A stretch of DNA of 64,000 nt, taken from the NCBI GenBank assembly GCA_963666975.2, contig CAXVYR010000004.1:96001-160000 (forward strand). The letters run 5' to 3'. The stretch is from Terriglobia bacterium. Lineage in GTDB: Bacteria; Acidobacteriota; Terriglobia; 2-12-FULL-54-10. Below, in pieces: positions 10,744 through 56,122 of the stretch (position 1 is its first letter; the number at the start of each line of letters is the position of its first letter). The notes beneath the pieces are model-generated. The model worked only from the letters and a program-made list of their open reading frames with translations, made no database searches and was not told the origin of the DNA. The translations under genes and the position numbers were made by a program.

Positions 10744-10874
10744 GAGATTTTTGAAAAACTGGTGTATGGGTCCGCTTGCTAACGCGCGCGGCTCGGCAAG
10801 TACAACCCAATCAGCACGCCCATTCCGAGCCGCGACCGTGAGGGAGCGGACAAATGTCGTTTTTCAACAACCTG
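10744..10874. mobile_element. MITE-like element (~131 bp) carrying a REP doublet; copy lacking the nested insert
   Basis: Ends GAGATTTTTGAAAAAC...GTTTTTCAACAACCTG followed by CTAG; interior homologous to 13940-14139 and 42613-42769. Confidence 0.75.
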
Positions 10875-13939: not shown

Positions 13940-14139
13940 CAGGTTGTTGAAAAACACCATTTGCCCGCTCCCTCACGGTCGGGCTCGGAATCGGCGTGCT
14001 GATTTGTCTGCGCTTACCGAGCCGCGCGCCTGTCCCGCCTGCCCTGCCTGCCCTGAGCGAAGTCGAAGGGAGCGGAGTCGAAGTGAGCGAAGCCGAGGGA
14101 TTAGCAAGCGGACCCATACACCAGTTTTTCAACAACCTC
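13940..14139. mobile_element. MITE-like element with REP doublet and 72-bp triple-nested insert
   Basis: TIRs CAGGTTGTTGAAAAAC / GTTTTTCAACAACCTC flanked by CTAA and TTAG; inverted relative to the 10744 copy; insert at 14029-14100. Confidence 0.85.
14029..14100 (+). repeat. Three nested copies of a 24-bp hairpin unit
   Basis: CCTGTCCCG[CCTGCCCTG[CCTGCCCTGAGCGAAGTCGAAGGG]AGCGGAGTCGAAGTG]AGCGAAGCCGAGGGA = 9+9+24+15+15. Confidence 0.9.
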
Positions 14140-14387: not shown

Positions 14388-16565
14388 TCACCTCGCGAGC
14401 GGGTCGGGGCGAAGCTGGAAGTGCACGACCTTGCTCTTCGTGCCTTTTCCGCCTTCGCTGTGAAAAGGCGCGCGTGTGGCCCAGGTGGACCACAATCCCT
14501 TGCCCTTCCAGCCGGCGTTGGGATCGTCGATCCGGCCGTCCAGCCCTTTGCCGTAGAACCCCAATGGATAGGGCACGCGAAGAACTACGAACTTCCCGTC
14601 GACCAGAGGCAGCAGGGCGTCATGCTGATTGCCGGTGGCAATCGGCACGTTGACTCCCAGCCCGAAGGTGTCGAACAGATCCACCCAGGAGAAGTAGCTG
14701 GCCTCGGCGCTGCCGGAGTCGGTAACGCCCTGCATCTGCGGTCCCGGAAACGGGTAGAGCGTCCAGCCTTCCGGACAGTGCTGCCCCGTCGCAGTTGGCC
14801 CGTTGAGGGGGCCAGTGCACTTGCGCCGGTCGAAGCTGGCAAAGTGCCCGCTCGCAAGGGGAGTCCAGACGACCCCGTTGCCGTCAACGTCCATCCCGCG
14901 CGGCGAGAATCCCTGAACGGCCGCGTTTGGGTTGTCCCACGGAAGCTCGTAGATTTCCGCCAGAGCGGTCTCCGGCGGGTTCGCCCCAGGGCTCAGCCGA
15001 ACGACCGCGCCGGGAAAGCCAAGCGACGACCCCCAGACGGAATCGTCCACCGCACTCGGCATGACGCCGTAGAAACCCGCCGATATCCGCTTGTCCTTGG
15101 CGGGATCGACCGGCTGATCCGGCTCCACCCACGCGTCCTGCTTGCCGTTGCCGTTGGTGTCTAGGATGAGCGGTGTCCAACCCTGCGATTTCTCCTCATC
15201 GCCGGTTTCGTCGAACATCTTCGTATTCAGCCAGCCGACGACTTGGCCGCCGCCGCTGGTCCACAGCGTATGGTTGTCGTCATCGTCAAAAAACAAGTGG
15301 TGCGTGCTGAAACAGGTGCTGACGAGCGTGAACTCGCCGGTTTCCGGATCGTACATGGCGAGGTTGCGCCCTGTTCTGTTTGTCGGGAAATGTTTTGCCG
15401 AGGGATGGCTCGACCCTTCCTTACAAAATGCCGGGTTGTCATTCGGACGGACTTTGGAGGTGAGCCAGACCCGCCCTTTGTGATCGAACATCGGATTATG
15501 CGCATTAGCCTGGCTGTTCCAGATGAGTTCGTCTCCCCAGTAGGGCGAGGGCTGCAGCATCGTCCGCGCCGATGAAATAGGGGTTTCCGGATCGCGCACC
15601 GGAATCGTCAATTGGCTCGCCGTGTGGCTTACCGGATCCAAGACGCTCAGGGAATTCGAGCTGTGCTCATGGACCCCGTAGATGGGGCCGTTGGCGTTGA
15701 CCGTGGGGTCCCATTTATCGGTCGCTATCTCATCGTGGAAATACTCCTGCGGGGTAGCCCAGTCCCACAGGGTAACGACGACGTTTCGCTCCACGCCTTG
15801 CGGCCGGGGCGGCACCGGAGGCAACTCTCCGGCGGCGATGCGATCGGTCCAATCCGCAAACAGCTCCAGCGCCCGCTCCCGGCCCATCTGGCCCACGCGG
15901 CTTATCATGTTACCGCCGGCTTGTCCGGACTGTAAGCGCCGGTTCCACGCGTCCACCGTCGAGTCGAAATCGCCCAGACCCGGGGGGAGCTCTCGCGTGG
16001 CCTTGTTGCCCATCTGATGGCACGTCACGCAGCCGTCCGTTTTCACGTACCGCAACCACTGGGCCTGGCTCTTCATGCTCTCCGAAATGCCGTTGCCATT
16101 GGGCCCTGTGCCGGGAAAATCGCTCTTGTCCGGCACATGGAGCAGGGAGTACCAATAACTTGCCGGGTAGTATTCCGCCGCCGCGGCTGGATTCGGCGCC
16201 ACTACCGCCGTCAGGTCAACGATGTTGCCCGGCGTGGCCTGCACTTTGGGGGAATCCACCAGCCCGTAGCCGCGCACCCACACGCTGTAGCTCGCTTCCG
16301 GAAGGTCGGGCAGCAGGTAGCGTCCCCGGTCATCGGTGACTACGATCTTGACGAACTTGGTGGGCAGATCGGTCGTTTCCGCAATGACCCAGACTCCTGC
16401 TTCCGGCCCTTCCGCGCTAGTGACTACCCCGCCGAGGTCGTCGTTGTCGATGCGGACTCCACCTCCTGTCAGTTGGCATGCGCTTGTCCCGGCCAGCAAA
16501 ACGGCCAAGAACACGGCGAAGCCGGTCCACACCATGCCTAAATACGACGCCCTTGTCGTCTCCAT
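14388..16565 (-). CDS. Exported carboxypeptidase-regulatory-like domain protein with a CxxCH heme c motif and probable beta-propeller
   Basis: AGGAGG RBS before M 16565; hydrophobic leader; GPEAGVWVIAET, VVTDDRGRYLLPDLP..YSVWVRGYGL; DGCVTCHQMG. Confidence 0.8.
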   Translation of the reverse strand: METTRASYLGMVWTGFAVFLAVLLAGTSACQLTGGGVRIDNDDLGGVVTSAEGPEAGVWVIAETTDLPTKFVKIVVTDDRGRYLLPDLPEASYSVWVRGYGLVDSPKVQATPGNIVDLTAVVAPNPAAAAEYYPASYWYSLLHVPDKSDFPGTGPNGNGISESMKSQAQWLRYVKTDGCVTCHQMGNKATRELPPGLGDFDSTVDAWNRRLQSGQAGGNMISRVGQMGRERALELFADWTDRIAAGELPPVPPRPQGVERNVVVTLWDWATPQEYFHDEIATDKWDPTVNANGPIYGVHEHSSNSLSVLDPVSHTASQLTIPVRDPETPISSARTMLQPSPYWGDELIWNSQANAHNPMFDHKGRVWLTSKVRPNDNPAFCKEGSSHPSAKHFPTNRTGRNLAMYDPETGEFTLVSTCFSTHHLFFDDDDNHTLWTSGGGQVVGWLNTKMFDETGDEEKSQGWTPLILDTNGNGKQDAWVEPDQPVDPAKDKRISAGFYGVMPSAVDDSVWGSSLGFPGAVVRLSPGANPPETALAEIYELPWDNPNAAVQGFSPRGMDVDGNGVVWTPLASGHFASFDRRKCTGPLNGPTATGQHCPEGWTLYPFPGPQMQGVTDSGSAEASYFSWVDLFDTFGLGVNVPIATGNQHDALLPLVDGKFVVLRVPYPLGFYGKGLDGRIDDPNAGWKGKGLWSTWATRAPFHSEGGKGTKSKVVHFQLRPDPLAR

Positions 16566-16926
16566 GTCCGCACCTCCTGTTCTCATCTTCATTTCCCCGC
16601 TCCTCCCATGGTGGCCTGCGCCTTGGATCACAAGATCATCGGATGACTGGACCATCCGTTAAACGCATCCTTGGAATGCACCCATTGGAATGCACCCATT
16701 CAATGCATTCGTGCCCGATTGATTACACATAATATTTGTACAGCTTCAATGGGGCCACCCCCCTTGGGTTAGTTCGCCTATTAGAACATATTTCCAAGAG
16801 GAACATTTCAGTTCTTTTTTCCGTCCAGGGATCCGGAAGATATTCCTTATCTTTGCACGGCGCTGAGAAGTGTTTCCCGGCTTTGAACTTGCTATTTCAT
16901 GTTCAATGTTTTATCTTTCGGCTTAG

Positions 16927-17056
16927 CAGCTTGTTGAAAAAAGGATTTTGAACGACGCTACGAGCACGTAAATCGTTGTAACCCATTGATTCTTCGTTCG
17001 ACGGCATTCCAGAAAAGTGGTTTTCGGGCAGGCGAAAATGATTTTTCAACAAGCTG
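16927..17056. mobile_element. MITE (130 bp) with IS5/IS1182-like ends
   Basis: Perfect 15-bp TIRs CAGCTTGTTGAAAAA / TTTTTCAACAAGCTG, flanked by TTAG and TTAA; no coding capacity. Family assignment is inference. Confidence 0.85.
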
Positions 17057-17074
17057 TTAAGGGGGGACACTCCC

Positions 17075-17572
17075 ATGCATCTTTTGCATCTTTGGCGAAA
17101 GACATTCCTGTTGGCCTTCTGGCTTATTGTTGCCGCCCTACCGGCGCTTGCCCAGCTCGAACGAGTGGTAGCTGAATCCAGAGGAATTCTCTGAGGAGAC
17201 TGCGTGGCGATCATGCAGGTCTCCTTACAACGCCTGGACGGCGTTGACCGAGTGGTTATCAGCAGAAAAAAGCAGATGTTCGCGGTGACGTTTGAGCCGG
17301 GATCCAGCTTCCGCCCCAAAGTGCTGCGCGACGCGGCTACCGAGGCTCATATTCGGGTCGTTCGCTTCCACGTTTCGGCGCTGGGCGAGGTCGAGACGGA
17401 AGGCGAAAAGCAGATATTTGTCTCCGGCGAGAACCGATATTTGCTGGTGGACTCGCCCGAGCTCCCCACCGGCATCCGCATCGGCGTGGTAGGCGTGGTG
17501 GACGACGCCACCGATCCGTTCCAGTTGAAGGTGGCAGATTTCAAGCCGTTGAACCAAGCCGCTAAAAGATGA
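17075..17572 (+). CDS. Exported HMA-like metal-binding protein with in-frame TGA (UxxC); probable selenoprotein
   Basis: ATG 17075 with AAGGGGGG upstream; signal peptide ending ALPALA-Q; RGIL-TGA-GDCVAIMQVSLQRLDGVDRVVIS matches the HMA GMxCxxC...L..LxGV..V pattern; in frame with track ORF 17204-17572. Confidence 0.78.
17195..17224 (+). promoter_or_regulatory. Candidate bacterial SECIS-like stem-loop
   Basis: Directly after TGA 17192-17194: GGAGAC-TGCGTGG-CGA-TCATGCA-G-GTCTCC (6-bp + 7-bp stems, bulged G, two G-U pairs). Confidence 0.6.
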
Positions 17573-18138
17573 GGAGTGACGAACGGACCGCAGGGAGAAT
17601 GCCTTGCGGGTCCTCTCATAAGAAGGCGGGCCACAACAAAGACAGAGTGACCACCCCGGCGGAAATAAAATCCCGCCAGGATCGCCCCGCCATCGTCCTC
17701 CGATGACTTACTCTTCTTCCTTTTCTTTCGCTGTTTTCTTCGGTCGCTGTCCTTCCGGGTAGCGAACGTTCGGATTATCCTCTATTTTTTGCTAGTTAGG
17801 CAGACGGCCAAAGCCAATTACATTTGCAGCCTTGCCTAGAAGTATACGCCAAGGCTCCTACGCCAACAAGGCCTGCCCACCGATGGTTTTAACGCGGCAG
17901 CAAAAGCAGGGAAAATTTCCCTGAAATTCCTATGCCTTGACAGTGAACTTTCTTTTGCCGTCCGTTGCAACATATTGCAACCACAAAAGGTAGCTTCTCC
18001 CCGCAAACTGGAAGCTCAATTGCCCTACTCGGATTGGTGCTTTTCAGTAAATATTTTAGTTCGAGCATGTCGCGGGAATTGATCTCCGCCTGTCCTAAGC
18101 CGGAATCTTCCGGCCTGGATTTTCGACTGGAGGAACAT

Positions 18139-55986: not shown

Positions 55987-56122
55987 AGCCCTGCAAGGGC
56001 GGCAGATCCTAGCCCAGGACGTAAGCGCTGGGACAACGGGGCCGGTATTACCCCGAGCCCTGGAGGGGCGCAAGACGCTTCGGCCCTCTTCTTTCGCCCC
56101 TTCTGGCACCCCTTCCGGGGCT
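55987..56122. repeat. REP-like cluster (AGCCCTG.AGGGCG type)
   Basis: AGCCCTGCAAGGGCG, AGCCCAGGACGTAAGCGCTGGG, AGCCCTGGAGGGGCG and inverted CCCCTTCCGGGGCT. Confidence 0.65.

Follow-up and report, generated by a model that had tools for sequence, protein, structure and literature searches.

A probable Sec-containing HMA protein behind an in-frame UGA in an uncultured Terriglobia bacterium

The DNA analysed here (the window) is a stretch of 64,000 nucleotides from a Terriglobia bacterium (assembly GCA_963666975.2, contig CAXVYR010000004.1, positions 96,001 to 160,000 of the forward strand), and coordinates given without a contig or locus name count from its first letter. Between positions 17075 and 17572 of its plus strand lies a gene of 165 codons plus stop, with one internal UGA, which public annotation reduces to the part downstream of that codon. 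We are confident that this gene is a real but mis-annotated selenoprotein gene in which the UGA is read as selenocysteine (Sec, U). With only slightly less confidence, the homologies suggest that its product is an exported, Sec-containing protein of the HMA type. A metal-carrier role for this protein seems fairly likely on the same grounds, and we propose more tentatively, at somewhat less than an even chance, that the metal would be handed on to a MerT-like membrane protein encoded elsewhere in the genome.

The reading frame, its homologues and the Sec machinery

The frame opens with an ATG (17075-17077), located 8 nt downstream of a Shine-Dalgarno-like AGGGGGG (17060..17066) that was read from the sequence and presumably acts as the ribosome-binding site. 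It passes through the in-frame UGA at 17192..17194, which stands for residue 40 at the first Cys position of a CxxC motif, and ends at a true stop TGA (17570..17572), where relatives stop at the equivalent place with TAA or TAG. With TGA translated as U, the peptide around the recoded codon reads ...ESRGIL-U-GDC-VAIMQVSLQRLDGVDRVVIS... The second ligand of the resulting UxxC motif, Cys43 (TGC, 17201..17203), is invariant in full-length alignments of the window protein with 24 relatives and with 51 relatives that include Cys forms, as is position 40 if U and C are counted together. The only open reading frame (ORF) listed under table 11 is one of 122 aa that begins at a GTG (17204..17572). An earlier note, made from the sequence alone, had described this start, the internal TGA, the end and the length of the frame; it had also pointed out that the ORF list held the post-TGA part only and that ordinary gene callers would split the gene. 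All of this proved correct. Public protein databases hold only the post-TGA piece: all nine relatives of the window protein found in the public protein collection (9/9) are pieces of 118-132 aa that start after the TGA, and one 122-aa entry is 97% identical to the window's own post-TGA piece.

Contigs assembled from runs of three independent studies span 17030-17700 and show no difference at the TGA. The sole difference in this interval is a G>C at 17066 in one run. As contigs from three different studies agree, the TGA is not a sequencing error, and the confirmation in independent data for which the earlier note had called was thus obtained.

To find homologues, a six-frame search that reads through stops was run on 61 related genomes. 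Matches came from 17 of them, among which are 10 of the 13 other members of the same family-level group, and the read-through translations form a full-length alignment with the TGA in a single column. The same TGA is found at all nine metagenome loci (9/9) and at all seven loci (7/7) from named metagenome-assembled genomes, which are labelled Acidobacteria or Terriglobia apart from one Verrucomicrobiia. After removal of duplicates the tree contains 35 distinct homologues, spanning roughly 20-80% identity, of which 31 have TGA at the site and four have Cys (TGC) in the same column. The prediction that the TGA occupies the first Cys position of the HMA motif is borne out by this pattern, and the question of whether homologues carry Cys or TGA there is answered by both being seen. 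The Sec forms divide into 27 UxxC proteins, three UxxU and one Ux4C. Upstream of the TGA, the 39 codons encode a signal peptide and the motif A-x-A-Q-[VL]-E-x-V, in frame in 35/35 homologues. Within the tree, the window gene belongs to a small clade with loci L023, L024 and L047, all four of which share the motif U-G-D/S-C.

Some members of the family depart from this motif. Three distant relatives from the same class (L033, L037 and L046) have two Sec codons, in the arrangement G-M-T/V-U-x-x-U, and share with the window protein the signal peptide, the HMA domain and the additional C-terminal domain; they score below the cut-off of the NCBIfam model NF041115. At L027, from the same family-level group, the motif reads U-E-I-S-G-C, so that Sec and Cys are separated by four residues rather than two.

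In a profile search, 1.84 billion representative sequences gave 28,065 matches at E <= 0.001. Most of these are generic HMA proteins; others, full-length and ~155-200 aa long, share the two-domain layout of the window protein. Of 23 full-length relatives taken from the 150 matches listed, 22 have CxxC at the site and one has a single Cys. No HMA selenoprotein of this kind was found in 400 other sampled genomes of the phylum (E <= 1e-12), which is not proof of absence. The family is small and uncharted, and belongs to one group of uncultured Acidobacteria.

The source genome is 98.9% complete. Its selB (371.8 bits), selA (563.5 bits) and selD (349.5 bits) all score over their cut-offs, as does tRNA-Sec (72.8 bits), which ARAGORN confirms with the anticodon tca. 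The genome search for selA, selB, selC and selD advised in the earlier note has therefore found all four. The gene for selD carries its own in-frame TGA at the canonical Sec position. selB and selD lie on the same contig as the window, about 0.9-1.2 Mb away, and selA and tRNA-Sec on another contig, in agreement with the remark that the window itself holds no sel genes. A Sec-containing formate dehydrogenase was looked for across the whole genome and not found: the alpha subunit gave no match over the cut-off, nor any match containing an in-frame stop. Identified users of Sec comprise selD, the MerT-like protein and two HMA paralogues, although no genome-wide selenoprotein scan was made. A possible further selenoprotein of the genome is encoded at a locus (L060, contig C3:90509-91201, minus strand) that matches weakly to a pyridine nucleotide-disulfide oxidoreductase fold, over positions 115-355 of the MerA model, and contains one in-frame TGA.

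Hairpins downstream of the UGA

Two short hairpins on the plus strand are conserved downstream of the UGA. The first, H1 (17206..17224), is our best candidate for a Sec insertion sequence (SECIS). It has a 7-bp stem and a 5-nt loop, AUGCA (17213-17217); the hairpin begins 11 nt and its loop 18 nt after the UGA. The second, H2 (17228..17246), also has a 7-bp stem, with the loop UGGAC (17235-17239). In H1, 91.3% of alignment cells pair and both-sided changes occur in five of the seven pairs, and in H2 the figures are 91.9% and two pairs, with three further pairs invariant. Taken together, 91.6% of 322 cells pair, compared with 30.7-54.0% in slid controls, and seven pairs have both-sided changes, compared with 2-4. 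When the alignment was set against 500 shuffles, none reached the observed value on four measures and five did so on a fifth. RNAalifold independently recovers both H1 and H2. No Rfam family was found for the region after the TGA.

Because the hairpins overlap coding sequence and the sequences are related, controls based on codon use and on the Cys forms were added. Where two relatives share a residue, they also share the codon in a fraction of 0.714 of cases within codons +1 to +18, compared with 0.47-0.55 in four parts elsewhere in the gene. Pairing in the four Cys-form genes extends to 2-5 of the seven positions of H1 and 1-4 of the seven of H2, and in the five Sec forms checked to 5-7 of seven. 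In the UxxU relatives L033, L037 and L046, H2 is nearly unchanged. For comparison, in the selD SECIS of this genome a 7-bp stem carries its GGU loop at 20 nt from the UGA, and a spacing similar to that of H1 is known from the E. coli fdhF element. Given this resemblance in stem length and spacing, H1 is likely to be the SECIS and the site bound by SelB. H2 may be an auxiliary part of the recoding signal.

The earlier note had assigned this function to another structure, a 30-nt hairpin that starts at the first base after the UGA (17195..17224, plus strand; GGAGAC/GUCUCC plus UGCGUG/CAUGCA). This hairpin does exist as the minimum free energy fold of 17186-17250 (-32.6 kcal/mol, z = -4.5, with 0 of 200 shuffles as stable). 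It is, however, specific to this sequence and not conserved: only 58.0% of cells pair across 23 distinct Sec-form relatives, against 33.7-52.5% in slid controls, and its covariation score falls inside the range of those controls. It is therefore not the conserved SECIS candidate, and the covariation that had been sought in the hairpin as drawn is found instead in the shorter, overlapping H1 and H2. Since the 5' arm of the 30-nt hairpin (the first 12 nt after the UGA) would lie inside the ribosome, this structure should be absent while the UGA is being decoded.

Several observations weigh against the assignment of H1 as the recoding element of the window gene. H1 forms six of its seven pairs here, with one C-U mismatch, compared with seven of seven in L023 and L024, and the base change behind the mismatch is the same one that creates the 30-nt hairpin, which shares the 3' arm of H1. 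Over 66 nt, the minimum free energy fold with the competing hairpin reaches -34.0 kcal/mol, compared with -19.6 kcal/mol for the conserved structure. The loop of H1 is AUGCA here and AUGGA in most relatives, and neither corresponds to the GGU of selD. Further, the covariation sample consists of related sequences from which the structure itself was derived, and part of the conservation of H1 and H2 is at the protein level, as both lie in coding sequence.

Protein architecture and the MerT-like partner

The window protein begins with a signal peptide of the Sec type (Sec here being the export pathway), M1-A26 (17075..17152). Its sequence is MHLLHLWRKTFLLAFWLIVAALPALA, followed by QLERVV, with R8, K9, a hydrophobic core and a putative cleavage site at A-L-A before Q. 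A26 is nearly invariant in all 25 aligned rows, and in the ten closest relatives A26 and Q27 are invariant and A24 nearly so. The next segment, approximately residues 28-93 (17156..17353), is an HMA domain of the MerP/CopZ type with the motif G37-I-L-U40-G-D-C43. All 25 family members (25/25) match the Pfam HMA model at E <= 1, the best at 1.1e-11, and 6 of 10 relatives scanned singly pass its threshold at 26.8-38.9 bits. In addition, the family profile matches solved structures of CopZ (5e-12), MerP (1.1e-10) and the metal-binding domains of P-type ATPases at profile positions ~25-93.

For the window protein by itself the evidence is less favourable. Both the signal peptide and its cleavage site were assigned by eye. 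The match to Pfam HMA (PF00403) scores 17.3 bits (E 0.0064), below the gathering threshold of 24.8; the best NCBIfam match, NF041115, scores 36.2 bits against a cut-off of 95; and the MerP model TIGR02052 gives 29 bits against a cut-off of 92.55. As every score is under its cut-off, the window protein belongs to no curated family. HMA homology is nevertheless secure, because of the matches across the family and the profile hits to solved HMA domains. Furthermore, since all homologues have the same layout and retain both the signal peptide and the A-x-A-Q junction, the protein would be MerP-like (exported) rather than CopZ-like (cytoplasmic).

The remaining ~70 residues (17354..17569) form a C-terminal domain of no known family that has no Pfam match; in the impression given by the earlier note it would be beta-rich. 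It is conserved across the family, with the consensus ...ARG....EG....FVAG.DRFLL...P..P.G....V.G.VDD...P..LKV..FKP, including the VDD...P..LKV..FKP tail and the residues G104 and G118. A profile comparison with solved structures gave a best E of 0.011, to a segment of a polyketide synthase, which we regard as spurious. DUF5818 was suggested by Atlas (0.89), but Pfam supports it in only 2 of 25 members (E 0.02), and Atlas also gave 'hypothetical' clusters at 0.90. Matches to DUF6286 in 10 of 25 members fall on the HMA region. A search for longer proteins holding this domain gave only two close pieces of the family itself. The proposal of an exported HMA-like protein with an extra C-terminal domain thus agrees with the HMA matches of the family and with the conserved, predicted signal peptide.

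A paralogue of the window gene is present on another contig of the genome, directly downstream of a MerT-like gene of 106 codons (L040:1123-1440, equal to contig C3:1338044-1338361, plus strand) that contains two adjacent in-frame TGA codons. The MerT-like protein has the motif P-S-U-U-V-L-P-Q-V-L-A-G-L-G and, by eye, three hydrophobic helices, and its Sec-Sec would fall where MerT has the Cys-Cys pair of its first helix. It matches Pfam MerT with E 7.7e-6 (26.4 vs 32.9 bits), and scores 26.5 vs 130 with merT_RC607 and 14.2 vs 375 with NF045683. Downstream lies an 8-bp hairpin with a GGC loop, at 20 nt from the first UGA and 17 nt from the second; it is nearly invariant across the 14 distinct sequences folded. 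Upstream of the gene, TTGACA and TATAGT with a 17-nt spacer can be read by eye.

At 16 of the 35 distinct HMA loci this gene directly precedes the HMA gene in the same orientation. A structured RNA upstream of the homologues was also considered; no Rfam or tRNA match was obtained, and what is conserved there proved to be the MerT-like gene. In the order, it is single-copy in 8 of 14 genomes, including 6/6 of those at least 90% complete, and both TGA codons are always present. The source genome has one copy, which is that beside the paralogue. Public annotation truncates this gene too: of 120 relatives listed, 115 are 83-aa calls from a GTG right after the TGA-TGA, and the single 106-aa entry reads W-W at these codons, presumably under a code with TGA as Trp. 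The gene was not found in 400 other sampled genomes of the phylum (E <= 1e-10), which again does not prove absence. The Sec/Cys states of the two partners are uncoupled, as L028 and L031 have Cys in the HMA protein (D-I-D-C-L-P-C) and keep TGA-TGA in the MerT-like gene. The paralogue falls in a MerT-linked clade of the tree, and a second, unlinked clade is nested among linked ones. In the clade of the window gene (with L023, L024 and L047) there is no MerT-like neighbour.

The paralogue is followed by a NifU_N/IscU-like gene (L072:10877-11323, plus strand; Pfam E 9.2e-24), the ATG of which overlaps the stop of the paralogue (ATGA). This gene was seen only in two loci of the same genus, L039 and L040. 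selA is encoded ~6 kb upstream of the paralogue operon on the other strand. Together, the NifU/IscU-like gene and the proximity of selA leave room for a link with sulfur or selenium trafficking.

Alternative readings, proposed role and known systems

Selenocysteine in a UxxC motif could serve redox chemistry instead of metal binding, with the pair cycling between selenenylsulfide and reduced states in a periplasmic oxidoreductase of ferredoxin-like fold. No motif is commoner among redox selenoproteins than UxxC, and a 2026 review (PMC13188914) regards most uncharacterised selenoproteins as probably redox. The window copy has no metal-handling gene beside it, and the genome has no MerA over the cut-off, the best match scoring 401 vs 454 bits. 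This best match is a 499-aa ORF lacking the C-terminal Cys pair and the N-terminal HMA domain that are hallmarks of MerA. We still consider a redox role improbable, given that the family profile matches only HMA metal-binding domains (CopZ, MerP and the N-termini of P-type ATPases), that the motif sits exactly in the position of GMxCxxC, and that the MerT-like membrane protein gene precedes the HMA gene at 16 of the 35 loci. Relatives of MerT are metal transporters, not redox enzymes.

It is also conceivable, though again not likely, that the family is real and that the window copy is decaying or silent. Immediately upstream of the gene is a dispersed repeat of ~138 bp that resembles a miniature inverted-repeat transposable element (16922..17061, plus strand), with perfect 15-nt terminal inverted repeats (16927-16941 and 17042-17056; CAGCTTGTTGAAAAA). 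It separates the ribosome-binding site from an upstream stretch common to the orthologues and is absent upstream of L023 and L024. A simple scan of 16600-17750 found no sigma-70-like promoter. RNA support consists of one 181-nt contig (16975-17155) from one metatranscriptome, which stops short of the TGA and is weak evidence, as DNA carry-over is possible. These points, with the mismatch in H1, count against a functional window copy. On the other side, the frame is intact over 165 codons and every invariant residue is kept; relative to L023, the 119 post-TGA codons have 20 synonymous and 19 non-synonymous differences and no indel or stop; and the identical sequence appears in assemblies of at least three studies. 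The metatranscriptome contig starts inside the repeat and continues into the gene, so transcription may be supplied or passed on by the repeat itself.

Read-through of the TGA without selenium, with Cys, Trp or another residue inserted by near-cognate decoding or an altered code, appears very unlikely. Low-level UGA read-through does occur in bacteria, and one MerT-like relative has been called with W-W at its TGA pair. Yet TGA closes 16 of the 30 window ORFs that reach 300 aa or more, which makes it their commonest stop, and it stops this gene itself; the Sec machinery is complete; the Cys forms lack the conserved hairpins; and relatives without the TGA have Cys in its place, the classic Sec/Cys pattern. 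Least credible of all is a genuine stop at this TGA, leaving a 39-codon leader and a separate 122-aa protein from GTG 17204, or a pseudogene: public gene calls treat the locus in this way (9/9 database relatives), but all 35 homologues keep the pre-TGA signal peptide and motif in frame, the Cys forms are uninterrupted proteins, and the product from GTG 17204 would lack the signal peptide, U40 and C43.

We therefore return to the reading of the window gene as a Sec-containing metal carrier, for which the following mechanism can be proposed. When the ribosome meets the UGA, H1, perhaps together with H2, would recruit SelB-GTP-Sec-tRNA(Sec). The product would leave the cytoplasm through the Sec pathway, with cleavage following A-L-A. 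Once periplasmic, its selenolate-thiolate pair U40/C43 could capture a soft, thiophilic ion, for example Hg(II), Cu(I) or Ag(I), and may do so more tightly or faster than a Cys-Cys pair would. Tentatively, the metal would then pass to the genome's single MerT-like Sec-Sec membrane protein, encoded beside the paralogue. The window gene would in this scheme be an 'orphan' paralogue without an adjacent transporter gene and with a mobile repeat in its 5' leader.

Two points weigh against such a hand-off and against a function in mercury resistance. The link to the MerT-like protein comes only from the operon of the paralogue. And because no MerA is found over the cut-off, mercury detoxification is doubtful and a classical mercury-resistance operon improbable. 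One broader possibility, which we regard as speculative, is that the soft-metal relay of this order is largely selenium-based. One or two exported Sec-Cys MerP-like proteins would feed a Sec-Sec MerT-like gate of three helices, whose Sec pair would be decoded at adjacent UGA codons, probably by means of one SECIS. Given the lack of a MerA over the cut-off and the chromosomal, single-copy operon in every high-quality genome of the order, such a relay may serve high-affinity uptake or scavenging of a thiophilic trace element instead of mercury resistance. The window gene would then encode a second, independently transcribed capture protein.

The surroundings of the window copy are not in themselves suggestive of metal handling, which is a further point against a metal-carrier role. 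Its neighbours include a 755-aa CarboxypepD_reg protein, an OmpA-family protein, a YfiO/TPR lipoprotein and a histidine kinase. None of eight neighbouring proteins was matched at E <= 1e-5 beside any of 33 homologue loci, and none is metal-related. The flanks of the other loci hold RecN/SMC-like, LeuA, subtilase and rRNA genes without any pattern. The 755-aa protein (14388-16655, minus strand) is encoded divergently and combines a weak carboxypeptidase-regulatory-like domain with a haem-binding-type motif, C-V-T-C-H. Five further copies of the repeat upstream of the gene occur in the genome, of which four are 97-99% identical to it and the fifth 83%; it also appears at 13940-14139 and near 10860. 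Its terminal-repeat pattern gives five matches in the window compared with 0.25 expected. Contigs of three runs break at the repeat, with loose ends and raised depth. Elsewhere in the window, an Acido-Lenti-1 small RNA (55987-56032, minus strand; Rfam RF01687, 40.7 bits vs a gathering threshold of 37) fits an acidobacterial origin.

If these readings hold, an exported two-domain MerP-like family is added to the catalogue of prokaryotic selenoproteins, and both this HMA family and its MerT-like partner are seen to be systematically truncated in public annotation. Sister genomes offer a natural Sec/Cys pair of HMA proteins, in which metal affinity and exchange rate could be compared directly. 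Two adjacent UGA codons with one hairpin make the MerT-like gene a compact test case for back-to-back Sec insertion in bacteria. That the Sec users identified are metal-handling proteins and selD also bears on why this lineage keeps its Sec machinery.

Replacement of a metal-binding Cys by Sec in mer- and cop-type proteins is already established, and HMA-type selenoproteins are known. An exported UxxC HMA protein with a second domain and a Sec-Sec MerT are both unlisted in the accessible portions of PMC13188914, PMC9312934, the Haft preprint (10.1101/2022.07.06.499078) and PMC12013277 (deep-Sep), and no Sec-Sec motif was found in the accessible part of the table in the first of these. A literature search for an exported UxxC HMA protein found nothing, though survey supplements may hold more and 'unreported' is provisional; one for adjacent UGA codons returned only noise.

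Among the known systems, CopZ (NF033794, NF033795) shares the HMA fold signature, and two-domain Cys-form relatives of the window protein are automatically named 'copper chaperone CopZ'. CopZ is cytoplasmic, has ~70 residues and carries neither a signal peptide nor a second domain. The window protein has both, and scores 22-23 bits against cut-offs of 91-95. In the cation-transporting P-type ATPase selenoprotein, UxxC sits in the N-terminal HMA domain. This protein (TIGR01525, UxxC; ABB15669.1), which appears in the accessible review tables (PMC13188914, PMC9312934), is like the window protein in being read as a metal-transport selenoprotein with UxxC, but is a large pump of the cytoplasmic membrane, in contrast to a small, free-standing exported protein with an unrelated second domain.

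NF041115 ('UxxU_metal_bind') is given as a 'putative mercuric reductase' with UxxU in Table 1 of the 2026 review, as far as that source is accessible (PMC13188914). It is likewise an HMA-type selenoprotein with Sec in the metal-binding motif, and UxxU also occurs in the relatives L033, L037 and L046. The window motif is UxxC, however, and the model, of 74 positions, includes nothing that corresponds to the C-terminal domain; among the 25 family members the best match to it has E 6.3e-13, and none comes near its 95-bit cut-off. The MerT-like partner can be set beside a small group of MerT selenoproteins with a CU motif (Haft preprint, 10.1101/2022.07.06.499078) and beside the MerT-family entry given as 'C/SxxU' in the review table (PMC13188914). 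The partner, a small MerT-like membrane protein, uses Sec as well, but has Sec-Sec from two adjacent UGA codons, not CU. The MerT/CopZ fusion-like selenoprotein NF045683 differs from the system described here, in which the MerT-like and HMA proteins are encoded by separate genes; the window protein scores 13.1 vs 375 bits with this model.

The remaining comparison is with MerP (TIGR02052; 1afi, 1osd). The window protein differs in having Sec for the first Cys, an extra C-terminal domain of ~70 residues and a score of 29 vs 92.55 bits, and the window copy stands outside any mer operon with merT and merA, having no MerT-like neighbour in a genome with no MerA over the cut-off. Like MerP, it has a predicted cleavable signal peptide and one HMA domain, in which the two-residue motif occupies the corresponding position; the MerP model is matched at E <= 0.001 by 24 of the 25 family members; and the paralogue adjoins a MerT-like gene just as merP adjoins merT.

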